From Candidatus Helarchaeota archaeon (GTDB lineage Archaea; Asgardarchaeota; Lokiarchaeia; Helarchaeales; RDOG01), in contig JAHPZH010000002.1 of the NCBI GenBank assembly GCA_019058315.1, forward strand, positions 96,001 to 160,000: a DNA stretch of 64,000 nucleotides, in the 5' to 3' direction. Position 1 is the first letter of the stretch; each line of letters begins with the position of its first letter. A model generated the notes under the pieces. The model was not told the origin of the DNA and searched no databases. It worked only from the letters and a program-made list of their open reading frames with translations. Of this stretch, positions 8,116 through 45,452 are shown piece by piece. Both the position numbers and the translations under genes were made by a program.

Positions 8116-8138
8116 GTATAAATCGAAGCGAGTTAAAC

Positions 8139-21192: not shown

Positions 21193-21819
21193 TTGACATA
21201 CACCTTCGATATATTTGAAAGCATAGATAAAATTGAGACATTAGTTATAGTTATGCCTGAAGAATTCTCAATTGCACTAGAAGATGAGGAAGAAGATGTA
21301 CATCCCTCAATCGTGGTGAAACTCACTTTCTATGATTTAATACAAACTTGGTCTAAACTGCTTTTAGCTGATAAAATTGTAATTTATCATGACATTGAAA
21401 TAGATAAAGCCGGGATAGAGTTAGAGGGATTTCGAAATAAATTTTGGGGAATAAAAAATGATCCTCTATTAGATTTTATCCACATAGGGCGAAAATATTT
21501 TGTTTGGCTTCAAGAACAAATTAAAAATGTAGACGTTGGAAATAAGGAAATGTATACTTTCTTTTCCAAATTTTACCAAAAGGAATGTCTTGTAGATTTT
21601 GATGAGACTGATTCTCTTCAGAAGATTATCTATGATAGTTTAATAAAACAAATGAGAAAAATATTTGAAAAAAGGAAAAAATATACACGAAAATTAACTC
21701 AAAAAATTTATGAAATTCTAGATCAACATTATAAAAACCAAGCTATAATTGAATGGGATAATTTAATGAAACATGGAAAACTATTATATTATGCACCGAA
21801 AAAGAAACCTATTTTTTAA
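21193..21819 (+). CDS. Hypothetical protein
   Basis: 208-aa ORF, TTG start after GGAG. Confidence 0.65.
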   Translation: MTYTFDIFESIDKIETLVIVMPEEFSIALEDEEEDVHPSIVVKLTFYDLIQTWSKLLLADKIVIYHDIEIDKAGIELEGFRNKFWGIKNDPLLDFIHIGRKYFVWLQEQIKNVDVGNKEMYTFFSKFYQKECLVDFDETDSLQKIIYDSLIKQMRKIFEKRKKYTRKLTQKIYEILDQHYKNQAIIEWDNLMKHGKLLYYAPKKKPIF

Positions 21820-21824
21820 TCAGA

Positions 21825-22637: not shown

Positions 22638-22685
22638 TATCTTTCATCAAATACTAACAGAAATAATAATATTTAAAGGTTTAAA

Positions 22686-22814
22686 TGGTGGGACCGCCGG
22701 GCTTCGGTCCCGGGATCTCTCGGTTTCTAAAATATCTTTAATCAAATTATCAGCCGAGCGCTTTAACCATTCTAGGTGTAGCCGATCTGACTCCACAAGC
22801 TAAGCCACGGTCCC
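22686..22814 (-). tRNA. tRNA-Ile(GAT) with two introns and an atypical T-loop
   Basis: Cloverleaf forms after removing 22770-22797 (D-loop) and 22725-22747 (37/38); encoded CCA. Confidence 0.88.
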
Positions 22815-23017
22815 AATTATGTCTAGACCTTTCTTATATCTTCCTAAGTCACAAAATCTATAATTTTTTAAATTCTTTTTGCTGAATCTCAAATCACAGA
22901 TTCATAGTATTTAAACTGTTGATTTTTTTTAAATATTACTTTTTTCATAATATTCAGAATACTCGTAACTTCCTAAAAAAATAAAAAATTTTTAGGTATT
23001 AGGTTCATTATTTTATA

Positions 23018-23123
23018 TGGTGGACCGGCCGGGACTCGAACCCGGGACTTGTGGTTGAAAATAATTATATTTTCAATCTCCACATTGCGAATGTGGCGAT
23101 CATACCAACTGATCTACCGGCCC
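23018..23123 (-). tRNA. tRNA-Ala(CGC) with a variable-loop intron
   Basis: G3:U70 pair; BHB intron 23049-23077 at position 45/46; encoded CCA. Confidence 0.92.
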
Positions 23124-23154
23124 TATGCAAATTCAACTTTAACAATTTATTTTC

Positions 23155-28341: not shown

Positions 28342-29748
28342 ATGAATGTTTCTAAAAAAATCATAAATGTAGTGCTATTAGGTCATATTGACCATGGTAA
28401 AACAAAATTGGCAGAAAAATTAAGTGAAAAAATATCAACAGCCGGTTTAGACAAACATCCCGAGGAACAAGAGCGCGGTATATCGATCGATATAGGCTTT
28501 ACTGCATTTGAACTTAAAGAATATTTAATAACCCTTGTCGATGCACCCGGTCATGCAGATTTAATAAGGAATGTTGTAGCTGCATCGTCTATATCTGATG
28601 CCGCGATTCTTGTGATAGCGGTTGATGAAGGTCCGATGATTCAAACCGGAGAACATATTGTGATATTGGATAGTTTTAAGATTCACAATGTAATAATCGC
28701 TCTCAATAAAATTGATTTGGTTAAAAATGACATAATTCAAAAAAGAATTGATGAAATAAAAAATTTATTAAAGGAAACATCTTTTCCAAATGCTCCCATA
28801 ATTCCGATATCCGCTGAAAAAGATATTGGGATTGAAGAATTAAAAAAAGCTTTGTATTCTATTCTATCTTCTCCCAAACGGCAAACTGATGGACCTTTTA
28901 AAATGCCGATTGATCATGCTTTCCCAATAAAAGGAACAGGAACTGTTATAACTGGAACTATCCATCGTGGAAAAATTACTATAGGCGATAAAATTGAGAT
29001 TATGCCTCTAAAAATTCCTATAAAAATAAAGGGTATACAAATTTTTAAAGAACCTGTTCAATCTGCTAAAGCAGGCGATCGCGTGGCATTAGCAATTTCG
29101 AGATTGGATTATCATAAAATTGAACGTGGATATTATGCTTGTTCTCCAGACAGCCTTAAAATATCTAAAAATTTAATTATTAAGGGTAAAGTTAACTCTC
29201 TTTTTAAAAAAGTCATTAAGTCTGGGATTAGAGTTCATATAACTGTTGGTATGCCGACTGTTTCTGCTATTATTTATCCATTTAAAATTGAAAATTCTAA
29301 AAACATATTATTAGAAAAAATAAGCTCAAATGAAGAATTTTATGCGTACTTACAATTAGATAAACATGTCACTACAGAAATAGGGGAACAATGTTTAATT
29401 TCTCGACTGGAACTTCCTCCAACCACTTTAAGAATTGTTGGGAATGGAATAATAGAGAATTCAGAACCATCTGATATTGAATTATATAAGGAATCGAGTC
29501 GTAAAGGTACCTTAAGATCAATCAAAAATCAAAATGATTTAGTAGTAAGATACGTTATAGATGGTTTATCTAAAAGCAAATTTGGAGCGGAAAAACTGTT
29601 AAATAAAGAAATTTATACTGAAAATGGAAAAAAAGGAAAGATTCTTTCGCCTTTTGGAACAAAGGGCGGAGTCATAGCCAAATTTAAAGAAAAACCAGAT
29701 GAAAATATTATAGTTTATTTAAAAAAATATAAAAAGGTTAAAATATGA
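28342..29748 (+). CDS. selB: Selenocysteine-specific elongation factor
   Basis: GHIDHGKT, LDKHPEEQERGISIDIGF, DAPGHADL, DHAFPIKGTGTV; adjacent to SepSecS and tRNA-Sec. Confidence 0.93.
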   Translation: MNVSKKIINVVLLGHIDHGKTKLAEKLSEKISTAGLDKHPEEQERGISIDIGFTAFELKEYLITLVDAPGHADLIRNVVAASSISDAAILVIAVDEGPMIQTGEHIVILDSFKIHNVIIALNKIDLVKNDIIQKRIDEIKNLLKETSFPNAPIIPISAEKDIGIEELKKALYSILSSPKRQTDGPFKMPIDHAFPIKGTGTVITGTIHRGKITIGDKIEIMPLKIPIKIKGIQIFKEPVQSAKAGDRVALAISRLDYHKIERGYYACSPDSLKISKNLIIKGKVNSLFKKVIKSGIRVHITVGMPTVSAIIYPFKIENSKNILLEKISSNEEFYAYLQLDKHVTTEIGEQCLISRLELPPTTLRIVGNGIIENSEPSDIELYKESSRKGTLRSIKNQNDLVVRYVIDGLSKSKFGAEKLLNKEIYTENGKKGKILSPFGTKGGVIAKFKEKPDENIIVYLKKYKKVKI

Positions 29749-31067
29749 AAGATTTAGATAAATATTTTCGTAATATCATTCCAGATCATATGTTAGATCG
29801 TGGTATTACAGTATTAGAGACTTATTTGAAACCAATAAGAATTTTATTGGAACAGAGAAGTATTCCTGAAGAAGGTTGGAATAAGGAGTCAATTAAACTT
29901 TTTTTAAAATTACTTTCACTGATGGATACTGATAAAGATCCAATCGCCGCCCGAGTTGGTGAAAGAGAAGCAAGGATGGCATCTCCATATATCGCGGAAT
30001 TAGCTCAAGGATTTTGCCATGGAATTGGTAGAAGTGGGGTTATTGCAACTTCCCAACCAAAAGCACCTGGTGGATCAATCATGTATAATCTAGCAAATAG
30101 ATTAGCATTATATGCAATAAAAAAGTTTGGTGTTCCAAATGCAAAAGGGGCTATAGTCTTTCCATTAGCTACTGGTATGTCAATTGCTTTAGCATTAGCG
30201 GTGGCAAGAGATATCACAAAATGTAAAAAAGTAATTTTTCCAAGATTAGATCATAAATCACCTTTAAAAGCTATTAGATTAGTTGGTCTGACTCCTGTTA
30301 TAATAGAAGGACAAATTTATGGAGACGCTGTGCGTATACCACCTGAAATTATAGAAAAAGCGATAGATAAAGAAACAGCAGCTATCCTATCAACAACCAC
30401 ATTCTTTCCACCTCGAGAAGCTGATGATATCAAAGCCATTGCGAAAATAGCAGAAGAACATCAAATTCCACATATAATCAATAATGCATATGGTGTTCAG
30501 AGTAGAATTTTAATGAAAAAAATCCAAGGCGCAATCGATGCTGGTCGTGTTGATGCATTTATCCAAAGCGTAGATAAAAACTTCCTGGCTCCCATAGGAG
30601 GAGCAATAGTTGCCTCCCCTAATAAAGAATTTTTAGAAAAAATTAACCAATCATATGCTGGTAGAGGAACTGCAGCACCAGTCGTTCAATTTTTAGCTGC
30701 AATCTTAACGCTTGGAGTGAAAGGATATGAAAGATTACGTGATGAACAAGAAAAAAATTTTAAATTATTAAAGGAACTACTTCTCAAAACAATAGAGAAA
30801 TATGGCGAAAGAGTATTAAATGTCGAAAATCCTGTAGCTATCGCAATATCAATGACTAAAAGGGATCCTCAAAAAGTAGGAGCGGCGTTATATTCTCTTA
30901 GAGCCACCGGCCCAAGAGCTCCATCCTCTAAGGATTGGGGATCATGTACAAACGAATATAATTGTCCTTATTTAGTGCTGAATGCAGCAATTGGTGTAAA
31001 AAAATCCGATATTATACAAATTAATGAGAAGTTAGAAAAAGCACTCCAACAAATAAAACCAAATTAG
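29745..31067 (+). CDS. spcS: O-phosphoseryl-tRNA(Sec) selenium transferase (SepSecS)
   Basis: GEREAR, HGIGRSG, QPKAPG, NNAYG, QSVDKNF; ATGA overlap with selB. Confidence 0.94.
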   Translation: MKDLDKYFRNIIPDHMLDRGITVLETYLKPIRILLEQRSIPEEGWNKESIKLFLKLLSLMDTDKDPIAARVGEREARMASPYIAELAQGFCHGIGRSGVIATSQPKAPGGSIMYNLANRLALYAIKKFGVPNAKGAIVFPLATGMSIALALAVARDITKCKKVIFPRLDHKSPLKAIRLVGLTPVIIEGQIYGDAVRIPPEIIEKAIDKETAAILSTTTFFPPREADDIKAIAKIAEEHQIPHIINNAYGVQSRILMKKIQGAIDAGRVDAFIQSVDKNFLAPIGGAIVASPNKEFLEKINQSYAGRGTAAPVVQFLAAILTLGVKGYERLRDEQEKNFKLLKELLLKTIEKYGERVLNVENPVAIAISMTKRDPQKVGAALYSLRATGPRAPSSKDWGSCTNEYNCPYLVLNAAIGVKKSDIIQINEKLEKALQQIKPN

Positions 31068-31140
31068 TTTAGAATTATTTCTAAAAAATAATTTATAATA
31101 AAAATCAAGTCCTTTATATGAGCAATAATAGTAATTTTGT

Positions 31141-31232
31141 GGCAGACTGTGCCGTAGGTGGTCCTGCGGTCCGGACTTCAGATCCGGGATACTCGAGAGA
31201 GTATGCGGTTCGATTCCGCCAGTCCGCCGCCA
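31141..31232 (+). tRNA. selC: tRNA-Sec (TCA)
   Basis: 9/4 fold, 7-bp D-stem with a 4-nt loop, CT-TCA-GA anticodon loop, long variable arm, G73-CCA. Confidence 0.95.
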
Positions 31233-31257
31233 ATTCTCATTTTTGGTGTAATTTAAA

Positions 31258-32244
31258 TTGAATCTTGAAGCAATAACAGAATCTATTAGAAATTTTGATG
31301 GTGTTAAAAGAAAAGAAGGCATAGCTATATCAATTAAACCATTAGAAGAAACATTAAACTTGGGAAATGTGAACGTAATAAAATCATTTGGTGAAGATGC
31401 AGCCGTTTTTGAAGTGCCAAATTATGATAATGATTATTTCCTATTAGCATTGGACGGTATGTGGAATAAATTGGTTGAAGCTGATCCATGGTTAGCTGGA
31501 TATTTTTCGATTTTAGTAAATGTTAATGATATTGTAGTTAAAGGGGGAACACCATTAGCTTTATTAAACATCATATCTACTACTGATGATTCATATACCA
31601 AAGAAATAATGGATGGTATTGTAGAGGGATGTAAAAAATTCTCAGTTCCAATGGTAGGAGGACATTATCATCCAAAAGCTAATAATAATTCATTATCTGT
31701 TGCTATTTTGGGTAAAGTTAAAAAAACCGCTGTTTTATTTTCTGATTCTGCCAAGGTTGGAGATAGTATTTTAATGGGAATTGATATGGATGGTAGTTTT
31801 AATACGAAATTCAAATATGCTTTTAACACAACTCAGCATAAGACACCTTCTCAAATTAACAAGATCTATCAAGTATGGCGGGATATTACTCATAAAAGTT
31901 TAGCATCAGCAGGTAAAGACATATCGAATCCAGGAATTTTAGGAACTTTAGGAATGCTATTAGATGCTAGCGATAAAGGAGGACGTGTGAATATTTTAAA
32001 CATTCCAACACCAAACAATATAGATTTTGAAACATGGTTAAAAGCATATCCTGGATATGGGGTAATATTTACAGCCAAGAAGGAAAATGTAGAGAAAATT
32101 AAAAAATTATATTCTGATACTTCAATAATAACAAAGGAAATTGGCATAGTAGATAATTCAAAAAAGTTAATTGTTGAAGATGATAATACCAGTAGTGAAC
32201 TTTTTGACTTTAGAAAAATTAATTTATCGGGTAAAAGTCGTTAA
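31258..32244 (+). CDS. AIR synthase (PurM-like) superfamily protein, methanogenesis-marker-2-like
   Basis: FGEDAAV, LVNVNDI, VGGHYHP, GKDISNPGILGTLGML, YPGYG. Confidence 0.8.
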   Translation: MNLEAITESIRNFDGVKRKEGIAISIKPLEETLNLGNVNVIKSFGEDAAVFEVPNYDNDYFLLALDGMWNKLVEADPWLAGYFSILVNVNDIVVKGGTPLALLNIISTTDDSYTKEIMDGIVEGCKKFSVPMVGGHYHPKANNNSLSVAILGKVKKTAVLFSDSAKVGDSILMGIDMDGSFNTKFKYAFNTTQHKTPSQINKIYQVWRDITHKSLASAGKDISNPGILGTLGMLLDASDKGGRVNILNIPTPNNIDFETWLKAYPGYGVIFTAKKENVEKIKKLYSDTSIITKEIGIVDNSKKLIVEDDNTSSELFDFRKINLSGKSR

Positions 32245-33176
32245 ATAATAGAAAGTCTCAAAGCATTCTCAGGACATCTCTCGACACATTTCAGACAATA
32301 AGTACATTTTCTATGTTGAATTTTATCGTAGGGTAATTTTAAAATAGGAATATTCATAGGACAAACTTCTACACAGATTTTACAATCTTCTTTTAAACAT
32401 CTAATCGGGTCTCTTCTCAAACCAAACCAAGAATATTCATTAAAATGTCCTAAAATAATACCCGTAGGACATATATATCGGCAAAAAACTAGAGGAATCC
32501 ATATATTCATCATTAAAATTATTAATAGAAAAAAGATTTGTATCCATAAGAAAGCATCATTTGCGAAATATGCCACTATATCTCCTTCATAAACAGGAAA
32601 GGATCCATTTATAATTCTCCATGGAATAACCGAGATTAAGGTGACATAAGGATCCAGTTGAGTATAAGTACCTTCACTAAATGGTCCAAGTGGTGAAGCT
32701 TGAGGAGATGATAATCGATTGAATCCAACTAATACACAGAGACCCAAAGAGATTAGAATTATTACGTATGGAATGTTAGATAATAAATCCTCAGTATCTT
32801 GTACTGGTTTTATTTTATTTTGAGGAAAATAACCTATCATTTCTTGAATAAATCCAAAAGGACAAACCCATGAACAAGTAGATCTTCCAAAGATGAAGCC
32901 AATTAAAATAAGTAATCCTAAAATAAGATATGGAATAATTGCATTAGCAATATAATATTCTAGCATATTATAAGAAGCTGAAATGTTTGAGAAAGGTCCA
33001 GAAAAACTTTGTTCGATAGGAAGCACGATACCACTAACGGAAGAAAACAGAAATATCCCATATGTGCCAGTAAATAATCCAATATTTAATAAAATAAAGA
33101 AAAAGATTTGAGAGGCAAGCCTAATAAATCTAAATTTATTTTTTCTCCAAAATGATCCAATTTCTTTTTTTACCAC
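32241..33176 (-). CDS. NapH/MauN-like membrane 4Fe-4S protein
   Basis: GRSTCSWVCPFG, FCRYICPTG, two ferredoxin Cys motifs. Confidence 0.88.
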   Translation of the reverse strand: MVKKEIGSFWRKNKFRFIRLASQIFFFILLNIGLFTGTYGIFLFSSVSGIVLPIEQSFSGPFSNISASYNMLEYYIANAIIPYLILGLLILIGFIFGRSTCSWVCPFGFIQEMIGYFPQNKIKPVQDTEDLLSNIPYVIILISLGLCVLVGFNRLSSPQASPLGPFSEGTYTQLDPYVTLISVIPWRIINGSFPVYEGDIVAYFANDAFLWIQIFFLLIILMMNIWIPLVFCRYICPTGIILGHFNEYSWFGLRRDPIRCLKEDCKICVEVCPMNIPILKLPYDKIQHRKCTYCLKCVERCPENALRLSII

Positions 33177-33213
33177 TTATATTCCTTCCAATATAAAAAA
33201 TAAAAACAAAAAA

Positions 33214-33354
33214 TTAACGAAAAGTAATAGATCTCGGCCATTTTAAAAAGAATACTAATACTTCGTATTCCAAATCTTGGTCTAGAGTATATCCGAATGC
33301 TATTAAGCAGAGAGCTATAAGTAGAAGACTCAGCGAAATAATAATTTTTCTCAA
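33214..33354 (-). CDS. 46-aa single-TM microprotein (not in ORF track)
   Basis: TTG start, MRKIIISLSLLLIALCLIAFGYTLDQDLEYEVLVFFLKWPRSITFR, directly upstream of the 4Fe-4S gene. Confidence 0.55.
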   Translation of the reverse strand: MRKIIISLSLLLIALCLIAFGYTLDQDLEYEVLVFFLKWPRSITFR

Positions 33355-33438
33355 GTCATTACGCCTAATTTTTTATTTTTTAAAAGAATCATTATGATAA
33401 TTTTTTATATTTTGCATTTTAATATTTTTATTATAGTA

Positions 33439-33510
33439 TAAAACCCAATGATGAGACTTGGACACCTGAAGATTAAAGATGATGACCCCATGCAGGTCTG
33501 GAGGGTTTTA
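33439..33510 (+). ncRNA. Box C/D sRNA
   Basis: 8-bp terminal stem TAAAACCC/GGGTTTTA; C box 33448-54, D' 33466-69, C' 33479-85, variant D box CTGG(A). Confidence 0.72.
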
Positions 33511-33513
33511 AAC

Positions 33514-33879
33514 TTAAAAATCATCGTAGTCCTGCATTTTTTTCAAAATCTTATTCTTAAATTTTAATGATTTTATGGGTTTTACTTTTAAATCTTTATC
33601 AAGTTCTTCTTCTTCTTCTTTAATCTTTTTCTGCTGAAAAGAACTAAGCATACATCTTCCATTTGTAGCCATTTTATATTTTACACAAAAAGAGTATTTA
33701 CACTTATAACCTTCACAAATTTCTCCAGGGGCAAAGTTACAAGCTACAACTAAATCAGACCCTTTTCTGAATCTGCGCCCTAAAGCTTTTTGTTGACATC
33801 TTAAGAATTTACAACTAGGAGTACAGTATTTTATATCTTGGCCTTTACTGTTAGGCACCATTATTTTGCTCCTTTTCAT
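33514..33879 (-). CDS. Cys-rich hypothetical protein
   Basis: Eight Cys followed by a charged tail. Confidence 0.7.
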   Translation of the reverse strand: MKRSKIMVPNSKGQDIKYCTPSCKFLRCQQKALGRRFRKGSDLVVACNFAPGEICEGYKCKYSFCVKYKMATNGRCMLSSFQQKKIKEEEEELDKDLKVKPIKSLKFKNKILKKMQDYDDF

Positions 33880-34025
33880 TGCCTATATTTTTTTCAATCA
33901 CTTCAATTATATAAAAACTTTTTTAGATTAAAATCTTTGTTCAAAATTGATTTATTAAAAATTTTATTTTGTTAAAATTATTGAGTATATGAAATAAGTT
34001 TCTAAAATCCATTTATTATATTTAT

Positions 34026-34832
34026 TTATAACTTTAATTCTTCTAAAAGTAAGGATAATTTTTCGATTTTTTTATTAATCTCATTTTTTTTATTCTCATA
34101 ACTCTTCTTTGTTAATTCACCTACTTTCAATCTCCCTTCTAAAATCCTTAGTTGCTCTTCTTGTTTCTCAATATCTCTCGTTAATAATTTTTGCCAATTT
34201 TCTTCAAAATAATATTTATCTTGAAGTTTGTCATTGAGTTTTTTTAATTTATCATCATATTCCTTTTTTAATTTCTCATATACATGGGGCTCAATTTCCT
34301 TTAAATGAAATTGGTTCTTTAAATTAGAGATCTGCTTTCTTAGTCTTTTCCTCTTTTCTAACAAGTCTTCTTGTGGTAATGGTTTTTTATCAGCCAATAA
34401 TTCCTTACGTTTTTGTTTTAATTTATCAATAGCTTCTTTCAATTTGGGGATTTCATCTTTGATTTCCTCTAATTCTTGTTCATTTAATTCTGAAAGAAAC
34501 GAATCAATTTTTTCTTTATGTTCTTTTAACTTCTTATCATATTGTTTAATTTTGACACGGATATAATATTGTTCAATTATTTCCTCGGGGATTTTTTCTG
34601 GTTTTTTTTCTTCTTTGGGGGCTACTTCGGGTTTTATTTCTTTTGGTTTTTTTTCTTGTTCAGGTTTTAAAGGAACAGGGGCTTGTTTAGTTTCTGGTTG
34701 GGGTTGGGTAACTTTCTCCTCTGATATCTTAATGGGCTTCTCTTCTTCCTCCTTTATTTTAAATCCACAATAAGGACAATAGTTATCTTCAATACTGATA
34801 GTTTTCTTACAAAATGAACATTTTATTTCCAA
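34026..34832 (-). CDS. Zinc ribbon + CdvA-like coiled-coil protein
   Basis: CSFC..CPYC, Pro/Glu/Lys linker, helical hairpins KEIEPHVYEKL and RLKVGELTKKSYE. Confidence 0.65.
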   Translation of the reverse strand: MEIKCSFCKKTISIEDNYCPYCGFKIKEEEEKPIKISEEKVTQPQPETKQAPVPLKPEQEKKPKEIKPEVAPKEEKKPEKIPEEIIEQYYIRVKIKQYDKKLKEHKEKIDSFLSELNEQELEEIKDEIPKLKEAIDKLKQKRKELLADKKPLPQEDLLEKRKRLRKQISNLKNQFHLKEIEPHVYEKLKKEYDDKLKKLNDKLQDKYYFEENWQKLLTRDIEKQEEQLRILEGRLKVGELTKKSYENKKNEINKKIEKLSLLLEELKL

Positions 34833-35020
34833 ATTATCAGAACCTTCAGAATTTTAGTAGCTAGTCGAAATATTATTCTATAAAAAGTTAAGTAACTAAT
34901 TTTATTTAAATTTATATTTTAAGACATAGCAAATATTTTATCTTAAGATTTACAACATTTTAATTAATAATTGGTAATAATTCTAATTAATTTTCATAAA
35001 TTATAAAATAGGTTGAAAGA

Positions 35021-35419
35021 ATGGCACAATTGACAAAGGAATTAGTTGATCGTTTAAACGAAATATCTCAGAAATTAGATAGTTTTACTAAAGGTTTAGG
35101 AGGCTTAGTGGAAGCCATTAATAAACTTGGAGAAAATACAAATTCAATATTAAGTGAATTGAGTAATAAAATTGGAAGTTATGCAGATATTGTATCTACA
35201 AAGAGTCAAGAAGATTTTGAGGTATCAAAAAGTCAATTAATTTCAATAAATACACAAATTGACAAAATTAGAAAAGGCGTAGGAATGGAGCAGATGTTAA
35301 AGATAAGTGATTCGTTAAGTGGACTTCTAGATACATTAGGGGGAGCAGATTTCGATCCAATGGATTTAAAAAATAAATTATCAGAAATTAAAAATTATAT
35401 AGAATCCAAAAAAGAATAA
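35021..35419 (+). CDS. Small helical/coiled-coil protein (type A)
   Basis: Heptad pattern; weak resemblance to 38485-38841. Confidence 0.75.
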   Translation: MAQLTKELVDRLNEISQKLDSFTKGLGGLVEAINKLGENTNSILSELSNKIGSYADIVSTKSQEDFEVSKSQLISINTQIDKIRKGVGMEQMLKISDSLSGLLDTLGGADFDPMDLKNKLSEIKNYIESKKE

Positions 35420-35436
35420 AATATGAGGCAAATTTA

Positions 35437-36111
35437 ATGAGCAATAGTGCGGATAAAGTTTTACCATTTATAACAACTGTTGTAAATGACATTTATGAAA
35501 AAGTGGGAAATCTTTCTGATTCTTTTAATAAACTTAATGAAATAATTGGTAATATAACTAAGAATTTTGAAGATAGTATAAATAAGCTTTCAAAAGATGT
35601 TGATGAAATTCTTGAAGAGACTCGAATGAATCGAGATCTAACATTAGAAGCATTTTCAGATTCAATGAATGCCTTTCTTGCAAAAATAAAAGAAATTCAA
35701 GATGAAAGTAACAAAACTTATGAAGGAAGTGAAATGGGGACAATATTATCCAGACTTGACAGAATTTCAAATAAAATTTTCGATAAATACTGGGATATTC
35801 AAATGTCTTGTACTGTATCAAATCTACACGTATTAGTTGATCTCTTAAAAGGAAACCCTAATATTATCAGAGTTCAAGTTCCAGTTGTTCAACAAGTTCA
35901 ACCAATTACTCCAAGAGTGCAAGCTGCAGCGCCTCTGTCAGCACCAGTACCATCAATAGCACCGCCTCCGACTAAACCAGAGGCCCAACCTGAGGGAAAA
36001 GTTGATGTGTTTGCAAAAAGTCCAAAATTTAAAGGCGGAAGAAAATTAAAAACCCATGAAGATCGCATGGAAGAAATGAAGAAAAAGAAGAAACTGTTTG
36101 GCCGTTATTGA
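35437..36111 (+). CDS. Coiled-coil protein with Pro-rich linker and basic tail (type B)
   Basis: LPFITTVVNDIYEK resembles 38150-38476. Confidence 0.8.
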   Translation: MSNSADKVLPFITTVVNDIYEKVGNLSDSFNKLNEIIGNITKNFEDSINKLSKDVDEILEETRMNRDLTLEAFSDSMNAFLAKIKEIQDESNKTYEGSEMGTILSRLDRISNKIFDKYWDIQMSCTVSNLHVLVDLLKGNPNIIRVQVPVVQQVQPITPRVQAAAPLSAPVPSIAPPPTKPEAQPEGKVDVFAKSPKFKGGRKLKTHEDRMEEMKKKKKLFGRY

Positions 36112-36115
36112 ATTT

Positions 36116-36553
36116 TTATCCGAAAAGGTCTGAGGGTTTTAAAAGACTATCATCTTCATCTTTACCAGATGATGGTGCAGGTTCAGTGGGAGTTCCAACT
36201 TGAGGAGGGGGTGGCAATGAGCTTGATTTACTAGGTTGAGCAGATTGTGTTTGGCTTTTTGGAGCTGATTTTACTGTGCTTGTAGATACCATACCCATCA
36301 TTTGTCTAACATCTTGAAGTACGCGATGTAATTCTAAAATTTGTACTCCCTTCTGCAGACTTTCTACCGAATCTTTTATTGTTTCAGTAACATTACCTAA
36401 ATTTCCAGAACCAGCTTTCTCTATGGCTTGATGAATTAAATTCTGATTTTGTATTAACAAATCATTATTTTGTTTAACCATTTGAGATAAATCGTTTACG
36501 CTGCTAACTAATGCTTTTAAAAGCCTTATTATTTCTACACCTAATTGATCCAT
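36116..36553 (-). CDS. Coiled-coil protein with Pro-rich linker and LLKPSDLFG tail (type C)
   Basis: Paralogous to 38865-39431. Confidence 0.8.
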   Translation of the reverse strand: MDQLGVEIIRLLKALVSSVNDLSQMVKQNNDLLIQNQNLIHQAIEKAGSGNLGNVTETIKDSVESLQKGVQILELHRVLQDVRQMMGMVSTSTVKSAPKSQTQSAQPSKSSSLPPPPQVGTPTEPAPSSGKDEDDSLLKPSDLFG

Positions 36554-36644
36554 TGTATCGCCTCTTAATTATAGACCATTTATTATATTTTTTATAATAA
36601 TACCTTTTATAATCTTGTTTTTTTTCTAATATATTAATAATTTT

Positions 36645-38128
36645 TTAAGGATTAATGTCTTTCCACATTTTTTTAATGAATAATAATCTTTTCATTCTAT
36701 CTTTGTGAGAAACTCCATCAAAAGTTTCATATGTCCAAGCATTTAATTCGGGTGGGCCTAAAGCTATAGGTTTAATTAAATTAAAGTTAAAAATTGGTGA
36801 TGATTTCATTAAACTAAATACACTAACTATTATATTTTCGATATATTCCACATTTTCTTTTAAAAAATTAATTGTTTTTTCAAAATCATCTTCATTTTCG
36901 TTTGGGAAACCTGTCATTATATATAAATAGGTCCTAACGTTTGCATTTGATAATATTTTTAGCAATTTGGAAAAATTATTAATATTTATTTTTTTACCAA
37001 TAATATCCAGAATTTTGGGGCTAGCTGATTCTAATCCAAAAAAACAATGACTCAAACCCCTTTTAATATAATTTAAGATTTGTTTTTCATTAATATTTGA
37101 TATTTCACAATTGCCCCCCCATTTAATTTCTATATTTGAATTATATAACAAATCGAGAGCTTTTCTAAAACCATTAGATAAGTTAAATGCATTATCAACA
37201 ATTTCAAAATTATGAATACCATAATTACTTGTATAATATTTTATCTCTTCAAATATAATTTGAGGGTTTTTTCTTCTGAAATCACCCCAAATTGAATTTT
37301 CATTACAAAAAACACACTTATTTGGACAACCTTTTGCTGTAAGAATATCTAAAGTTTTAAAATTTTCAAGTTTTAGATCTTCTAAAAAATCATATCTAGG
37401 AATAGGTAAATCATTTAAATTCAGTTTATTAGGTGGTTTAGTAAAATGTATTTTATTATTTTTTTTAAATCCGATACCTGGGGAGTTATAAATACTAATT
37501 TTATCTTTAATTTTAGATAATATTTTTAATAATGGAATTTCACCCTCTGGATGATATACTACTAAGTCTATAAATGGTAATTGTAAATAAAGGTTCGCTC
37601 TATAATTTAAAAAAGCCTCAGGTCCACCAAATATAATTAATGAGTCTGGTTTTTCCTCTTTTATTCTCTGAGCAGCATAAATTGAACTGATTGCATTTCC
37701 AGTAGTTACTGAAAATCCATAAATTCTTGATTCAGATTTAATTAATTTCTTAATATACGTCTCTAAAATCTTTTCTGTAACTTTTTTATGTTTTAAAAAT
37801 TGATAAAAGAAAGGTTTGTATAATTTAGAACATACAGAACATAAAGACTGGATTAGATTTTCTCCAATTTTTTCATAGTTAAAAAAAATATGACCCCATA
37901 TTAACCAATTTGCAGCCCCCCAAATTGCAAATTCGGGGATTTTAAAATCATAATAGTTTTTGATATGAAAATCCTGAGAAATTTTTTTTTATAGAAATCT
38001 AGACTAAAATCAAAGCCTGAAACATTAAATCCTTTATTTTTTAAAAAAGTTATAAGACTTACTATTCCAAGAGATGGAATTTGGGTTGTATATGCCGGTA
38101 AAGAGGTTAAAATACAGTCAAACTGCAT
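36645..38128 (-). CDS. Cobalamin-binding radical SAM protein with a -1 frameshift at the A9 tract (37982-37990)
   Basis: PSLGIVSL in frame 0; IIFGGPE, EGE, LNDLPIP, KGCPNKCVFC, FGLESAS, MTGFPNE in the -1 frame, which is open from 37982 to 36645; joined product about 494 aa. Confidence 0.88.
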
Positions 38129-38149
38129 TTATTCACCAAAAAAATAGTA

Positions 38150-38476
38150 TCAAGACTCAAATTGTTGCACAACATTCAAGATCCGTTTTAAAGCTAGTAA
38201 AAAGTCAACATACCATATTCCTTCATTGATCTGGTCCAAAGTTTGATTGAATAATTTTGTGGTTGATTTGAATTCGTTTGAAATTTGAACTTTTTCCAGA
38301 GTATTGTGCATAACCCGAATTTTACCAATCGCTTCACTAATTTGTTGATTTAATTCTCCTAAAAACTTAGTGAATTCATTTCCAAACAGTTTTAATTGGT
38401 TTGAAAGTTCATCAAGTTTGCTATAAACATCATTTAAAGATGAAGCTACGAATGGTAAAAGGCTTCTATCAGACAA
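38150..38476 (-). CDS. Small coiled-coil protein (type B')
   Basis: LPFVASSLNDVYSK. Confidence 0.75.
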   Translation of the reverse strand: MSDRSLLPFVASSLNDVYSKLDELSNQLKLFGNEFTKFLGELNQQISEAIGKIRVMHNTLEKVQISNEFKSTTKLFNQTLDQINEGIWYVDFLLALKRILNVVQQFES

Positions 38477-38484
38477 ATTTATCT

Positions 38485-38841
38485 TTACTCCATAGAGGTT
38501 TGTTTAGAAACTTTTAATAAAGCTCTTATTAGTTCAGAAACCATATCCGAAACATTTTTTTTATCTAATTCTTGTTTTATAGTAGCAGTTAAAGTTAAAA
38601 GGTTTTGTTTAGCTTCCTCAATTTCAGATAATTTAAAAACTGTTTCAAAGGTTCTGGTTAATCGATCAACATTGACATTTAAACTAGCTATCGCTGATGC
38701 TATGCCATTTTTCACATTTACAAGAGTTTTGGAAAGGTTATTAATGTTATTATTTGTTTGAATTAATTTTGTAGAAATTTCTTCAAACATTTTTTTTATT
38801 TGAACTGCAGTATCTGAAACTTTACCTTCTGATGTAGCCAA
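38485..38841 (-). CDS. Small coiled-coil protein (type A')
   Basis: Heptad pattern; tightly spaced in the operon. Confidence 0.75.
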   Translation of the reverse strand: MATSEGKVSDTAVQIKKMFEEISTKLIQTNNNINNLSKTLVNVKNGIASAIASLNVNVDRLTRTFETVFKLSEIEEAKQNLLTLTATIKQELDKKNVSDMVSELIRALLKVSKQTSME

Positions 38842-38864
38842 ATATTATACACCTAAGTATCAAA

Positions 38865-39431
38865 TTAACTTCCAAAAAATGTAGATGGCTTAATTAATCC
38901 TTCCTCAGATTCTTCTTCTTTCTCTTTCTTTTCTTTTTTAGCTGTTTTTGTTGGAGGAGGTGAAAGTTGAGCTTCAACTTTTGCAGGAGGAGGTTTTATT
39001 CCAACAACAGGTTTTGCTTCTTTTGGTTCTTTCTTTTGAGACTCCTTCACTGTCATTGGAGTCGGTACGCTTCGCACATTAGTTAAATTCTCGATCCTAC
39101 TTACTAAATTTTGGATTGATAAAAGTTGTATACTTTTTTGAAGCTTCATAATTGTATGATCTAGAGTCTGATCTATTTGATCAAGACTCTGAATCCCTAA
39201 ATCGTCAATTTTTTGAGAAATATTCTTTTCTAAAGATGGGATTTCTTTTTGTGCAATAGTTGAAAGGCTAGTATTTACTATTGATTCAATTTTTCCTATT
39301 TTCTCTGTAAATTCATTAAATAACTTGCTTTGATCTCCTATCTTTTTCTCTATTCGCTGCAGTGCTCTTACAGCATCTTCTAGAATACCTGCCAATACTT
39401 TCATCAATGCACCTGAATCCGGTGTCGCCAT
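38865..39431 (-). CDS. Coiled-coil protein with Pro-rich linker and LIKPSTFFGS tail (type C')
   Basis: Paralogous to 36116-36553. Confidence 0.8.
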   Translation of the reverse strand: MATPDSGALMKVLAGILEDAVRALQRIEKKIGDQSKLFNEFTEKIGKIESIVNTSLSTIAQKEIPSLEKNISQKIDDLGIQSLDQIDQTLDHTIMKLQKSIQLLSIQNLVSRIENLTNVRSVPTPMTVKESQKKEPKEAKPVVGIKPPPAKVEAQLSPPPTKTAKKEKKEKEEESEEGLIKPSTFFGS

Positions 39432-39590: not shown

Positions 39591-40598
39591 TTATAAGGGT
39601 TTCCCAGAAATCCAAGCTTCACTTAACAGAGTTGAGAAAAATTCAATATGTTTTGGATTGTTTGACATCATACCCATAGGTCCTGGTGTTTTATCAGAAT
39701 GAGCAGCCAAGATAATTTCTTCTCTATCATGTTCTAGCCCCCATCTATCTTGTTTATCAAAATTTCGAAAAGTTATATTTGGAAATCCAGAAAATGTATC
39801 CATAATCTCTTTATGGTTTTCAATATTAAGATCTATAAATGTAGCAATCCGAATATTGATTTTTTTATTAAGATTTTGTAGTTCAATTTGTTCAATATCT
39901 TCAATTGTAGGTGTACATATTAATAATCTAATTTTTACATTATCTAACATATTATTCATTATACTAATAATATTCTCTTTCCCTTGAATCAAGCCCGTTT
40001 TTTGTTCTTTAATATTTTGATACTCCACATTTAATTTTTCAAAATCATTCTCAAGATCAGATATCGTTTTCTTTAATTCATTTATTTTTTCTTGTTTCCC
40101 AGTAATTTCCTTTGTTTTTTCTTTAGTATCATTTTTTAAATCTTCAATCTTAGAAACTAGTTTCTCATCAGCTTGTAATGCTGTTTCTAATTTTTTTTCT
40201 TTATCTTCAATCTCTTTGTTTTGTTTTTCGATATTTTCTTTTAAATTTTTAATAACTTTAACTTGACGTGAATTTTGTTCTTCATAATTTTGGATTTTTT
40301 CCTGAACCCCGCCAAATTCACTCTTAAGTTCTTCAAATGTTTTCTGCATATCTTGCTCTTTTTCTAAATAATTTTTTTCTAATTGTTGTATCTTTAATTC
40401 ATGTTCCTTTTTTAAATCAGCAATTAATTTTTCTTGCATTTGTTGATTTTCGACTAATCTTTTTTCAAGATTTTCGCAAGTTTCTTCTTTTTCCTTAAGA
40501 TTTTCTAGTAGTTCTTTTTCCATAGTAAGTATTATTTGTTCTTGTTCTTCTATACTAACTTGAGCATCAATTTTTTTTTCTATAATTTCATCATTCAT
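39591..40598 (-). CDS. Coiled-coil protein with C-terminal TrmB/PLD-like domain
   Basis: Long heptads, then MLDNVKIRLLICTP..DREEIILA; likely start MNDEII after GGAGAG. Confidence 0.75.
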   Translation of the reverse strand: MNDEIIEKKIDAQVSIEEQEQIILTMEKELLENLKEKEETCENLEKRLVENQQMQEKLIADLKKEHELKIQQLEKNYLEKEQDMQKTFEELKSEFGGVQEKIQNYEEQNSRQVKVIKNLKENIEKQNKEIEDKEKKLETALQADEKLVSKIEDLKNDTKEKTKEITGKQEKINELKKTISDLENDFEKLNVEYQNIKEQKTGLIQGKENIISIMNNMLDNVKIRLLICTPTIEDIEQIELQNLNKKINIRIATFIDLNIENHKEIMDTFSGFPNITFRNFDKQDRWGLEHDREEIILAAHSDKTPGPMGMMSNNPKHIEFFSTLLSEAWISGKPL

Positions 40599-40611
40599 AT
40601 AAATCTCTCCC

Positions 40612-42261
40612 TTATTTTGAAAGAGAATCGGACCAGTTTTTTCGAATTTCATTTATATGGATTTCATCTATTAAATTTTTTCTTAATAACTCATTAAAAC
40701 CTCTAGAAATCTTTCTATCAATATCAGGATTAGAAAAAAGATTTTCTTTTGAACAATTAAATTCAAAATTACTTCTTAGTTCCAAATTTATTTCTAAAGC
40801 GTTTTCTAATCGTTCTTGTAACATGACTTTAAATGAACTGTGTAAAAAATCAAAGGGAACCCATCTTTCTGATGTATTAAATTGGTTTGGGAGGAGGGAT
40901 GGTGGAGAAACGATAATTTTTTCATCACCATCGATTGTTTCAATCTCTGAAATATATAAAGGAATCCAAACTTTATTAATTGGCATAACTATTCCAAGGG
41001 AATTTCCTGAAACCGACCAAGATCCTAAATAACTCTTTTCATTTTCACAGACTTTTATAATTTTATCGATTTTTTCAAGAAGTATTTGAGCTTTATTATC
41101 AATTCTTTCCTTAATTTGTGTAAGTTGAGATAATTCTTTCTCTCTTTGTTCTTTAATTTTAGGAATTTTTTTATCCCCTTCTTCAACTAACTTTTGAAAT
41201 TTATTTTCAATATCGGATTCTTGGGTTCTGATTTCTGAAGCAAGTGCATCTATATCTTTTTGACTATTTTCTATTTCAATTTTAGTTTTAGTTATTAGCT
41301 CCTTAAAATTTGGAATATCCTTATCCAAGTTTTTTATTAATTTCAACGCTAAAGATAAGATTTCTTCAGGATCCTTTTCTTCAGCAAAAGAAGTTTTAAT
41401 TACTTGTGAATCTTTTAAAATTTTTTCAAGATTTTGTATAATTAACATAAATTTTTCAAAAATATTTTTTGAAATTGCATTATTCCGTTTTTCTTTCCAT
41501 TCCTGTAATTCATAATATTCATTAGATTTTTTAACTTCATAATCTCCTTTTATATTCTGTAATTCTGAATCAAGTTTGCTTAAAGTATATTTAGTTCTTT
41601 TTTCTTTTTCAGTATATTCTCTATTTATTTCAATTATCCAATCATCTGTAGTTGACGATACTAAGCCTTGAATCTGCTTCCAGCTCGTAATATTATCATC
41701 AACTTTTTTTATTGCACTCTTGAAAGATTCTGCAATATCAATCACGTTATCAGTGGTAAAGGCTTCCTCTAATTTCGCCATATAAGTCGATGGCTGAGTA
41801 TCTGTAAGTTTTATTAAAGTAGTTAATCCTCTTAAAACATCAGGGTCTATCATTCCCTTTATTTGAATCTCCTCTTGACCCTTTTCTTCAACTGTAGCTA
41901 AGACTTCATCTAAAACGTCAGGTAATCTATTTCTATCAGGACTTGCGTCTCTTAATAATCTTCCGATTTTAGCTCTATTTGGTGAACTACTTATTTTAAA
42001 ACTGAACGAAAAATAATCCAAATTATCAATTGCTATGTAATTTTGAGCATCGGCTTGAATTAAAGTGATTGGCCATAAAGCTTTCGAAAAAAAGATATAT
42101 TTTGATTTTAAAAATTCACTTTTTTTTCGTGAATATTCAATTAAAGCAAATTTTGATGCTAGTTCAAGATCAAATGGGAATGGAATAGAATTCTTTTCAT
42201 AAATTATACAAGGAGTAATGGAAAGAGATTCCTTTGCTGGTCCAATATTTTGACTTGCCAA
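40612..42261 (-). CDS. Coiled-coil protein with flanking globular segments
   Basis: KALWPITLI and VWIPLYI beta segments around a helical core. Confidence 0.75.
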   Translation of the reverse strand: MASQNIGPAKESLSITPCIIYEKNSIPFPFDLELASKFALIEYSRKKSEFLKSKYIFFSKALWPITLIQADAQNYIAIDNLDYFSFSFKISSSPNRAKIGRLLRDASPDRNRLPDVLDEVLATVEEKGQEEIQIKGMIDPDVLRGLTTLIKLTDTQPSTYMAKLEEAFTTDNVIDIAESFKSAIKKVDDNITSWKQIQGLVSSTTDDWIIEINREYTEKEKRTKYTLSKLDSELQNIKGDYEVKKSNEYYELQEWKEKRNNAISKNIFEKFMLIIQNLEKILKDSQVIKTSFAEEKDPEEILSLALKLIKNLDKDIPNFKELITKTKIEIENSQKDIDALASEIRTQESDIENKFQKLVEEGDKKIPKIKEQREKELSQLTQIKERIDNKAQILLEKIDKIIKVCENEKSYLGSWSVSGNSLGIVMPINKVWIPLYISEIETIDGDEKIIVSPPSLLPNQFNTSERWVPFDFLHSSFKVMLQERLENALEINLELRSNFEFNCSKENLFSNPDIDRKISRGFNELLRKNLIDEIHINEIRKNWSDSLSK

Positions 42262-44831: not shown

Positions 44832-45452
44832 TTAGGGTTTTTTTAGACTCAAATAATATTTCAAAACAGCGTCCCGAGCTACCTGTTGAAATGATCTTTT
44901 GATATTTTTACCCTGAATTGCAATCGTATCGTAGATCTGGGTCGACATTTCTATTCCGTGAGGATTAACTATAGTTCCTAGTCCTTTTTCCTTTAAATAT
45001 TCTTCAACTTTTGTTTTTGAAATCAAGTTAGGTAGATCAACTTTATTCAGTTGGACCAAAAAAGGGATCTTCTTTCCTAGAGCTCCACTTAAATGACCAA
45101 TCAATTCATCGAGACTCCAAAGATTTTCTTCCGTTTGGTCCTCTTGTGCGTCCCATACGAAGATTACCGCGTCTACGCCATTTAGAATCGTTTTACGCTG
45201 AAATTTATGGCGTTTTTGACCAGCAACTGTATAGACTTGTAGAGAAACGCCTCCAACACCCGCAGTCATACGATCAAAGAATAGGGTTCGCCCAGTGGGA
45301 TCCACTATTGACTGCATCTTACCCTTAGCCATCCCCTCTTTCTCGAACATCCACTTTACGGCTGTTGTTTTTCCCGATAAAGATGCTCCCCAGTACACAA
45401 TTTTGAATACTAACTTACCATCAGAACCTCGACTGGGGCACACAAATTTCAC
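44832..45452 (-). CDS. MglA-family small GTPase
   Basis: KIVYWGASLSGKTT, RTLFFD, TVAGQ, NKVDL. Confidence 0.9.
   Translation of the reverse strand: MKFVCPSRGSDGKLVFKIVYWGASLSGKTTAVKWMFEKEGMAKGKMQSIVDPTGRTLFFDRMTAGVGGVSLQVYTVAGQKRHKFQRKTILNGVDAVIFVWDAQEDQTEENLWSLDELIGHLSGALGKKIPFLVQLNKVDLPNLISKTKVEEYLKEKGLGTIVNPHGIEMSTQIYDTIAIQGKNIKRSFQQVARDAVLKYYLSLKKP

Follow-up and report, generated by a model that had tools for sequence, protein, structure and literature searches.

A Conserved Asgard Gene Module of Three Related Small Helical Proteins, Candidate Subunits of a Hetero-Oligomeric Scaffold

The Locus and Its Six Small Helical Proteins

The window analysed here, the whole 64,000-nucleotide stretch of a Candidatus Helarchaeota genome, carries six short genes named A1, B1, C1, A2, B2, and C2, together with a broken radical SAM gene (rSAM) and a conserved block upstream of the second set (Table 1). 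All six ORFs lie where the initial annotation had placed them and in the gene order that it described, with A-B on the plus strand converging on C2-A2-B2-rSAM-C1 on the minus strand, and its count of two complete A/B/C sets holds as well. Within the operons the intergenic gaps are 8–23 nt, and the convergent B1 and C1 genes have 4 nt between their stop codons.

Table 1. Coordinates (positions in the window), strands, and main features of the genes discussed.
Gene	Position	Strand	Features
A1	35021-35419	+	132 aa, all-helical, tailless; positional orthologue of the class-wide A gene
B1	35437-36111	+	224 aa; helical ~1-140, Pro-rich linker 141-196, basic tail
C1	36116-36553	-	145 aa; helical domain with LQK..Q.L helix, Pro-rich linker, acidic stretch
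rSAM	36645-38128	-	class B (B12-type) radical SAM gene, broken; Pfam Radical_SAM E 4.4e-19
B2	38150-38476	-	108 aa, B-type; ~29-residue internal deletion in long helix; tailless
A2	38485-38841	-	118 aa, A-type; ~25-residue internal deletion matching that of B2
C2	38865-39431	-	188 aa; helical ~1-125, Pro/Lys/Glu-rich linker, C-terminal end EEGLIKPSTFFGS
39591 gene	39591-40652	-	coiled coil plus C-terminal globular domain; conserved gene upstream, set-2 block
40612 gene	40612-42261	-	549-aa protein; conserved gene upstream, set-2 block
GTPase	44832-45452	-	Arf/Ras-type small GTPase at the edge of the conserved block; Pfam Arf E 1.5e-12

The motifs on which the pairing of the B and C genes had been proposed were recovered in both members of these two pairs, namely LPF.....ND.Y.K with a Trp in the last helix in B1 and B2, and L.....T.......LQK..Q.L with the tail L[LI]KPS.[LF]FG in C1 and C2, as were the Pro-rich linkers of three members (B1, C1, and C2). 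B1 has the N-terminal motif LPF..ND.Y.K, an aromatic last helix, and a basic tail ending KKKKLFGRY, and its low-confidence AF2 model consists of two long helices (5–94 and 99–139); C1 terminates in SLLKPSDLFG. A transmembrane segment is not predicted in any of the six, as had been said before, because the Kyte–Doolittle mean of every 19-residue window is at most 1.13.

Paralogy of the A, B, and C Families

By BLASTP, B1/B2 (E 4e-5) and C1/C2 (E 2e-7) are recognizably related and A1/A2 gave no significant match. In profile–profile comparisons run with hhalign on orthologue alignments, the three paralog pairs were borne out with probabilities of 93.8% for A1/A2, 96.2% for B1/B2, and 97.3% for C1/C2, and the all-against-all check separated these within-pair values (94–97%) from those of neighbouring coiled-coil controls (below 5%), none of the families of 34026, 39591, and 40612 exceeding 4.6% with A1 to C2. 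C1 matched the class-wide C family at 96.6%. Across the A, B, and C families the probabilities were 70–85%, and MAFFT aligned A to B end to end. These comparisons establish the paralogy and indicate that A, B, and C are anciently diverged subfamilies of one small, all-helical protein superfamily. Compared with all the remaining A and B proteins, A2 and B2 have each lost a corresponding stretch of the long first helix (~25 and ~29 residues, respectively). B2 is under purifying selection, with 11 synonymous and 1 non-synonymous strain differences among the best-supported differences listed.

A Module Kept Across Asgard Archaea

A search of the 7362 ORFs of this genome with the family HMMs found only three triads, an orphan C, and four weak matches, the third set (A3, B3, and its C) being on contig C12. 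The triad is kept in at least eight family-level Asgard groups, and its range takes in Lokiarchaeia, Freyarchaeia, small Odin-sized genomes, and others; A-B loci with an adjoining C were found in the family-level groups f7, f12, f16, f23 (Freyarchaeia), and f25. A and B are adjacent in all lineages examined and C is adjacent in most: C stays beside A-B in all four paralogous sets within the window's order, and outside Lokiarchaeia the B and C matches are adjacent in 16 of the 16 genomes having both, but C does not adjoin A-B in f4, the largest Lokiarchaeial family, or in f5. The B family occurs in 82 of 201 Asgard genomes and the C family in 35 of 41 related genomes (single-protein query C2), and strong B2 orthologues occur only in the order's 7 genomes. 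A1 has orthologues in L013, L015, L039, and L043 and aligns with A-type genes from other Asgard classes, and the A1-B1 pair, which adjoins the SepSecS/selB cluster, is the positional orthologue of the f4-type A-B pair; a longin-TPR gene does not adjoin any set in the window. The ancestral unit is an A-B operon with a neighbouring, usually convergent C gene, and the pairs in the window are copies of this older unit. Conservation and synteny mark the triad as an ancient Asgard gene module. One natural A-B fusion (P0008, n = 1) was found; its contig measures 2.4 kb, and the fusion could have arisen through misassembly or a stop-codon artefact.

No relatives of A, B, or C were found in Pfam, NCBIfam, or the PDB sequences, and all database names read "hypothetical protein", in agreement with the earlier suggestion that the family is undescribed.

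Neighbouring Genes

Small GTPases recur beside the module: an Arf/Ras GTPase lies inside the set-2 block (syntenic in L013, L015, L016, and L017), a Ras GTPase is directly upstream of A3-B3, and the set-4 C adjoins Arf-like multidomain GTPases, with Ras/Arf GTPases beside three copies overall. Given the ~89 small-GTPase ORFs of this genome, a GTPase within five genes is expected ~17% of the time by chance. In f16, the A-B pair follows two actin genes after a gap of 14 nt. This context hints at small-GTPase or actin biology for the module. It is also heterogeneous and partly post hoc, and the Odin-sized genomes have unrelated neighbours; the Roadblock-like neighbours have Pfam matches only below cut-off. 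In the conserved block, the gene pair at 39591–42261 is syntenic in L013–L017 and matched no family in the Pfam scan, and the 549-aa family is present in Bathyarchaeota clusters too.

A Candidate Hetero-Oligomeric Scaffold with Docking Tails

Most likely, the module encodes a hetero-oligomeric coiled-coil core to which a C-terminal docking peptide is tethered, a reading suggested by the gene adjacency, the matched A2/B2 deletions of 25–29 residues, and the one A-B fusion, and we hold it slightly more probable than not that this Asgard-specific module works as a helical scaffold or adaptor with docking tails. A and B would pair along their long helices in an antiparallel coiled-coil bundle, which C would join as the third subunit, and C (and here B1 as well) would extend a long disordered Pro/charged linker ending in a short conserved peptide. 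In the case of C, the end motif [DE]xHL[LIM][KR]PS[DS][LF]FG occurs in Lokiarchaeia, Freyarchaeia, and one further group, and it is kept across classes at the extreme C-terminus behind non-conserved linkers; other lineages have different end motifs that are equally conserved, and the set-2 tail is of the RPSSFFG type. This putative docking peptide would bind a partner, and docking of this kind would make the assembly act as a scaffold or adaptor, with a small-GTPase and/or actin-linked process being the one to which the gene context points most.

The Radical SAM Gene and Set 2

The radical SAM gene, whose enzyme the initial annotation had proposed as a possible modifier of the complex, is not one intact ORF. 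A −1 frame break in the A9 run at 37982–37990, placed by mapping the frames to intact orthologues, separates the N-terminal 49 codons (in 37901–38128) from a main frame of 447 codons (36645–37988); the orthologues are single ORFs of 491–511 aa, and independent contigs carry the same break. Among the best-supported differences listed, 7 are synonymous and 17 non-synonymous, and the gene is apparently relaxed and decaying in this genome. The core CxxxCxxC is present in the long frame as CPNKCVFC, the B12-binding Pfam family scores 17.4 bits against a cut-off of 32.1, and the best NCBIfam matches are all B12 radical SAM families (RiPP/peptide C-methyltransferases, PhpK, and the MCR Gln C-methyltransferase), each far below cut-off. 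As for the proposed synteny with the module, it stands within the window's MCR-bearing order, to which the orthologues are confined (37–48% protein identity) and where the enzyme gene abuts or overlaps B2 in 7 of 7 genomes, and it fails in the other Asgard lineages searched, where the two are unlinked. Because it is frameshifted and under relaxed constraint here, besides being lineage-specific, it cannot be integral to the module.

It is possible, though we doubt it, that set 2 (C2-A2-B2) exists as the target or working partner of the B12 radical SAM enzyme transcribed with it, through protein C-methylation, in a system now decaying in this genome. The constant position next to B2, the peptide and MCR glutamine C-methyltransferases as best named relatives, and the derived features of set 2 (shortened A2 and B2, and its own type of tail) speak for it, but the family scores are too low for an assignment, the module has no linked radical SAM gene in any other Asgard lineage examined, and the enzyme degenerates while B2 stays under purifying selection. 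Moreover, class B radical SAM enzymes modify McrA, and since the order bears MCR, McrA is an alternative substrate. We suggest that the enzyme was added to the set-2 operon only in the window's order, where it may C-methylate a set-2 subunit, and that set 2 would work without it here, given the frameshift and apparent decay. The related idea of RiPP precursors with their maturase was rejected, as these are helical proteins of 108–224 aa that are kept throughout the phylum in the absence of the enzyme and stay under purifying selection during its decay; the sole match to a PqqD-like element (RiPP recognition) is B1, with 19.6 bits against a cut-off of 46.

Possible Separate Action of A, B, and C

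Less probably still, A, B, and C are co-regulated yet separate coiled-coil proteins, each forming homo-oligomers; they might, for instance, build filaments or scaffolds, or bind surfaces as amphipathic helices. The unlinked C genes of f4 and f5 mean that C could act separately, the PDB profile matches are generic homo-oligomeric coiled coils, MCP hairpins, and apolipoproteins, and the monomer models are long helices of low confidence. Such separate action is, however, at odds with the constant A-B adjacency and the frequent adjacency of C, and with the retention of three diverged subfamilies as a set across repeated duplications, and the paired internal deletions of A2 and B2 are difficult to account for unless the two proteins pack side by side.

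Comparison with the Ribosomal Stalk

A more distant prospect, which we consider improbable, is that the C tail imitates the tail of the ribosomal stalk and attracts translational GTPases or other stalk-tail partners, either away from the ribosome or alongside it. The C-terminal ...LFG peptide of aP1/aP0 recruits partners, and in both systems a helical oligomerisation domain is joined by a flexible linker to a K/E-rich stretch and a hydrophobic ...LFG end: in the aP1 and aP0 of this genome a K/E-rich stretch precedes the final GLGALFG and GLGSLFG, and in C2 one precedes the final GLIKPSTFFGS. A loose hydrophobic-[FY]-G end after a charged stretch is present in 12 of 7362 ORFs, only five of which end in [LF]FG (aP0, aP1, B1, C2, and one giant protein). 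Against this, the C motif is three residues longer and includes a Pro that would break a stalk-type helix, the residues after FG vary (FGS, FGKK, FKK, FRRGY), and the end motifs of other lineages, some of which do not have this one, are unrelated. The N-terminal domains are unrelated as well, with no Ribosomal_60s domain in the six proteins. Membership in the stalk P1/P0 family was rejected, as the only PF00428 matches fall in the true aP1/aP0 locus on contig C10 and the tail likeness is partial.

Comparison with Eukaryotic Coiled-Coil Complexes

True remote homology to a eukaryotic small coiled-coil complex (WAVE/Abi/Brk1, BLOC-1/BORC, or the ESCRT-I stalk) is very improbable, because beyond an analogous build of small helical subunits, Pro-rich linkers, and terminal motifs with GTPase/actin neighbours, there are only scattered sub-threshold matches (Mod_r, E 0.19; BLOC1_2, E 0.074; Vps23 chain 2p22_A, E 0.31) at noise level, the same Pfam families are matched far better by promiscuous coiled-coil proteins, and no defining domain of WRC, BLOC-1/BORC, or ESCRT-I was found.

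The comparisons with WRC, WASH, BLOC-1, BORC, and ESCRT-I made earlier lack detectable sequence support in the Pfam and PDB profile searches. In the Pfam scans of the six proteins and distant orthologues (E up to 1), the WAVE WHD, Abi HHR, and Brk1/HSPC300 families were all absent, and the module tails have neither the WH2 helix with LKKV nor the acidic-Trp end. Snapin_Pallidin, GCN5L1, KxDL, and BORCS5-8 gave no match in the same proteins; the only BLOC-1/BORC match is that of BLOC1_2, to one Freyarchaeial A protein, and generic coiled-coil repeat proteins reach 1e-7 to 1e-14 with BLOC-1/BORC families, so scores of this type are compositional. For ESCRT-I, the Mod_r match is that of C1, the UEV domain, steadiness box, and Vps28 were not found in the proteins, and the locus has no UEV/Vps28 gene. 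The available part of an Asgard ESCRT survey (PMC10936438) gives no family matching the module proteins. SNAREs were discarded, with no family match beyond Syntaxin_2 (E 0.051) in one distant A and no hydrophobic segment, and so was ESCRT-III/PspA/Vipp1, as Snf7 and PspA_IM30 are absent from the Pfam and NCBIfam results.

We suggest keeping these likenesses as analogies. ESCRT-I (stalk and headpiece, Vps23/Vps37/Mvb12) resembles the putative assembly in having a hetero-trimeric coiled-coil stalk of helical hairpins, with a Pro-rich linker on one ESCRT-I subunit. The WRC core resembles the candidate complex in its three small helical subunits, one tailless and two with Pro-rich linkers and terminal peptide motifs; small GTPases regulate WRC, which acts on actin, and GTPase and actin genes recur beside the module, but A, B, and C are mutually paralogous, unlike the WRC core subunits. 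BLOC-1/BORC likewise consist of several all-helical, mutually related subunits of roughly 110–150 aa, and BORC acts with the small GTPase Arl8; the module differs from them in having three subunit types, rather than eight, and tethered C-terminal peptides.

Six small genes in three paralogous pairs

All six short open reading frames called in the initial annotation were found again at the same coordinates (see the table), together with the motifs that it had quoted from the proteins. They encode three small all-helical subfamilies, A, B and C, each present in the window in two copies (sets 1 and 2), and the minus-strand order is 40612, 39591 (neighbouring genes named by their window start coordinate), C2, A2, B2, the radical SAM (rSAM) gene and C1, converging on A1 and B1, with intra-operon gaps of 8-23 nt. 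The three members said to carry a Pro-rich linker and a short terminal motif are B1, C1 and C2, the tail of B1 being basic with its own ending LFGRY, and a hydrophobic stretch fit for a membrane helix was not found in any of the six, in keeping with the earlier reading. The window itself is archaeal, with an archaeal LSU rRNA, RNase P RNA and tRNA-Sec, and lies on contig C5 of a 12-contig, 5.8-Mb genome. No family of Pfam or NCBIfam covers any of the six proteins, the only matches being low-scoring coiled-coil noise.

Positions of the module genes, the rSAM gene and an orphan C-like paralog
Feature	Position	Strand	Description
A1	35021-35419	+	ORF
B1	35437-36111	+	ORF
C1	36116-36553	-	ORF
rSAM	36645-38128	-	broken gene between B2 and C1
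B2	38150-38476	-	ORF
A2	38485-38841	-	ORF
C2	38865-39431	-	ORF
Orphan C-like paralog	L026: 8594-13540 (G002)		locus with mcrB-mcrG-mcrA downstream; equally spaced in G004:C97 and G006:C154

The proposal that these genes form three paralog pairs was upheld. BLASTP joined B1 to B2 (E 4e-5) and C1 to C2 (E 2e-7) and gave no support for A1/A2, while hhalign, with alignments of orthologues drawn from six related genomes, returned probabilities of 93.8% for A1/A2, 96.2% for B1/B2 and 97.3% for C1/C2, and also 70-85% across families for several A/B and B/C combinations. Because coiled coils may inflate such profile scores, three controls were run: the adjoining coiled-coil families 34026, 39591 and 40612 reached no more than 4.6% with any of the six; the family HMMs, searched against all 7362 ORFs of the genome, retrieved the family members and four weak matches only; and MAFFT placed the A-type onto the B-type proteins end to end. 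On these profile comparisons we take the three pairs to be real paralogs, and A, B and C probably all belong to a single ancient superfamily. Purifying selection on B2 is clear, with 11 synonymous versus 1 non-synonymous among the strain differences listed in independent metagenome contigs.

Distribution of the module in Asgard archaea

The two complete A/B/C sets that had been claimed are both in the window, and a third (set 3: C3, B3 and A3) lies on contig C12 of the same genome at 21521-23459 (7522-9460 in locus L038, where the following gene extends to 10778). The taxonomic order of the window was sampled as 7 genomes from three family-level groups; all seven keep the block 40612-39591-C2-A2-B2-rSAM in synteny, and A1-B1 facing C1 is present wherever the contig is long enough. 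Farther away, in the family-level groups f4 (the largest Lokiarchaeial family) and f5, an A-B pair of ~137 and ~140 aa, respectively, lies near SepSecS, like A1-B1 in the window, and is thus its positional orthologue; the single C of these families, ~190 aa long and with the same C-terminal motif, sits elsewhere in the genome, away from A-B, and the gene that follows A-B gives weak TPR/COG4_N matches only in Pfam. The neighbourhood of the selB/SepSecS/tRNA-Sec cluster with the A-B pair (window 28342-36111) is kept from the order of the window to the distant f4 (compared at L039, L043, L032, L033, L036 and L044), and this conservation identifies A1-B1 as the ancestral copy.

Across the phylum, the B profile gave a single full-length match in 82 of the 201 Asgard genomes that were sampled and none in several large groups (f11, 0/43; f9, 0/21; f26, 0/10). 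A set of twelve loci from additional family-level groups, among them Freyarchaeia and Odin-sized genomes of 1.3-1.4 Mb, was retrieved; ten of these loci, all outside the class, hold A, B and an adjoining C together, and the remaining two, both from f5, hold the A-B pair only. Moreover, the B and C profile matches are neighbours in 16/16 non-Lokiarchaeia genomes where both match. A search of 1.84 billion representatives with the B profile retrieved ~55 full-length members of 100-224 aa, the other matches being promiscuous long coiled-coil repeat proteins (phage tape-measure, DUF948-like). Database names are all "hypothetical protein", from Promethearchaeota/Lokiarchaeota or sediment metagenomes, ESM Atlas look-ups led to unnamed Promethearchaeota clusters only, and we found no description of the A/B/C family in the literature; the family appears undescribed, as had been suspected, with no detectable relative in Pfam, NCBIfam or PDB sequences. 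Judging from these profile matches and gene orders, the pairs of the window are copies of an older module that is widely conserved in several Asgard classes. What is new here is the linkage of C to A-B, the phylum-wide triad and its triplication in this genome, and we class it as a protein module of a new kind, to which no function is assigned.

A predicted A-B core with C as a probable third subunit

In low-confidence models, the secondary structure of A and B is a very long helix of ~80-93 residues followed by ~40 residues of return helices, which leaves about half of the long helix without a partner inside its own chain. In its distal part, A2 and B2 have lost ~25 and ~29 residues, respectively, versus every other A and B, and such matched deletions are expected if the long helices pack side by side. 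A and B are adjacent in every lineage examined, and one natural A-B fusion exists (P0008, 279 aa, of Lokiarchaeial type, on an ENA contig of 2409 bp), the only one found among 5.8 billion clusters, although this fusion may come from a lost stop codon or be an assembly artefact. The matched deletions, this adjacency and the fusion make a heteromeric A-B coiled-coil core the best reading, in which the long helices of A and B would pair side by side and C would join them. Across classes, and in the course of no fewer than four independent duplications, C has remained beside A-B, and this persistence makes it likely that C is their third subunit or partners them directly. A physical assembly of A, B and C is likely.

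Structure prediction added little to this picture. AlphaFold2 gave two long helices for residues 1-150 of B1 (54 sequences), with a low mean pLDDT of 59.9, and an unusable model of P0008 from a block-diagonal alignment (pLDDT 44.5); the complex prediction of A2, B2 and C2(1-128) with family alignments gave no answer (score 0.00), which speaks neither for nor against binding. Profile searches of PDB sequences retrieved generic coiled coils only (designed bundles, coronavirus HR1, MCP and apolipoproteins).

A putative docking peptide at the C-terminal end

The C proteins consist of a conserved helical domain, a non-conserved linker rich in Pro, Ala, Lys and Glu, and a sharply conserved extreme C-terminus, which reads [DE]xHL[LIM][KR]PS[DS][LF]FG in Lokiarchaeia, Freyarchaeia and one further group, and is replaced in other lineages by different motifs that are equally conserved. 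Such a pattern is, in sequence terms, the signature of a tethered docking peptide, which would dock a partner. That this tail mimics the ribosomal stalk is very unlikely in our view: the stalk tails of this genome are similar, having a K/E-rich stretch and then GLGALFG, but the C motif is longer and contains Pro. In f5 it is the A-type protein, and not C or B, that has a C-terminal Pro-rich extension (L054: 8102-8743; L055: 7730-8227), so the tail may sit on different subunits in different lineages. Elsewhere in the genome, a 2177-aa protein (C3:519880-526413) ends in a strongly basic stretch and then VVLFGDS, resembling the basic ...LFGRY tail of B1.

The radical SAM gene as a late and probably decaying neighbour

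The rSAM gene has a radical SAM core (E 4e-19) with a CxxxCxxC motif, and is a probable member of the class B, or cobalamin-type, radical SAM superfamily; its nearest NCBIfam models, all far below cut-off, are RiPP/peptide C-methyltransferases, PhpK and the MCR glutamine C-methyltransferase. Its proposed synteny with the module stands within the order of the window, where the orthologue abuts or overlaps B2 in 7/7 genomes, but does not extend beyond it: true orthologues (37-48% identity, full length) occur only in these 7 genomes, and whatever else matched among 121 genomes of the class is a distant paralog at ~27% identity. This distribution marks the gene as a late addition in one order and not as a part of the ancestral module, which corrects the earlier picture of the gene.

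Furthermore, the suggested link between enzyme and module is broken in this genome by a frameshift. The first 49 codons are read in one frame and the other 447 in another, and nothing but a -1 shift within an A9 run at 37982-37990 connects the two; contigs from an independent study of sediment cross this run with no indel, so the break is not an error of this assembly. Among the strain differences listed for the long frame, 7 are synonymous and 17 non-synonymous, versus 11:1 in B2 (Fisher p ~0.001), a pattern that fits relaxed constraint. The gene is thus probably a recent, inactivated pseudogene here, although slippage of the polymerase or the ribosome at the A run may still allow its expression. 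An alternative substrate class for the enzyme would be McrA, given that the order is MCR/ACR-bearing, with MCR alpha in 7/7 genomes and three copies in this one (C11:317484-318218, C5:376522-377301 and C3:197876-198661), but the tight operon linkage of rSAM to B2 argues for a connection to set 2. The same MCR alpha genes rule out that the decay of rSAM is tied to MCR loss.

Gene neighbourhood and functional direction

Small GTPases recur beside the module. A GTPase of the Ras family (Pfam Ras, E 3e-52) directly precedes A3-B3, in the same orientation and 56 nt upstream of A3, and is itself preceded by a protein with an IFT52-GIFT-like domain; an Arf/Ras GTPase lies in the set-2 block; and in the fourth set type, present in relatives, C directly adjoins Arf-like multidomain GTPases. 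Given that the genome has ~89 small-GTPase ORFs, each of these cases is weak and the pattern partly post hoc. The family-level group f16 has, right before A-B and oriented alike, two genes of the actin family (Pfam Actin, E 1e-33 to 1e-34). The gap to A is 14 nt in L051 (8312-10870), while in L052 (8215-10782) they overlap the predicted start of A; C is convergent at both loci. A functional direction in small-GTPase and cytoskeletal biology is therefore a tentative suggestion of the gene neighbourhood. Roadblock/LC7 was rejected for the genes beside the triad in f12, f23 and set 4, where Pfam gave either no match or one that missed the cut-off (E 0.0068 to 0.29).

Membership in WRC, BLOC-1/BORC, ESCRT-I, SNARE or ESCRT-III, with some of which the initial annotation had compared the proteins, was not found by sequence (Pfam and PDB-sequence profiles). 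In the way it is predicted to work, the module is like the small adaptors built of hetero-oligomeric coiled coils whose disordered tails bear motifs, and differs from them in that its three subunit types are paralogous to one another, that it is restricted to Asgard archaea, and that the motif of its C tail matches none of the known motifs tested. We consider improbable the full scheme in which an Asgard-wide A/B/C heterotrimeric adaptor would recruit actin-regulatory or small-GTPase machinery through its peptide, as a prokaryotic counterpart, by function and possibly by descent, of the small coiled-coil adaptors that serve trafficking and the cytoskeleton in eukaryotes (WRC core, BLOC-1/BORC type), with one copy C-methylated by rSAM in one MCR-bearing order.

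Eukaryotes have no closer known relatives than the Asgard archaea, in which, to our knowledge, the majority of conserved genes specific to a lineage lack a functional assignment. A three-subunit helical module is now defined in several of their classes, with recurrent small-GTPase neighbours and, in one lineage, actin; it is of moderate-to-high interest for Asgard cell biology, and if its assembly holds and the partner of its peptide is identified, it would be a new component of the Asgard cytoskeleton and GTPase toolkit.

At other loci, an orphan C-like paralog with a different tail, ...W.K..I.KIK.LGR, lies directly upstream of mcrB-mcrG-mcrA in three relatives, and the orphan of this genome (L027 8466-9251) adjoins methenyl-H4MPT cyclohydrolase. 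Gene 40612 (window 40612-42261) encodes the 549-aa protein of the conserved block, which falls into unnamed clusters present in Promethearchaeota; the features search of the ESM Atlas places them in Bathyarchaeota as well.
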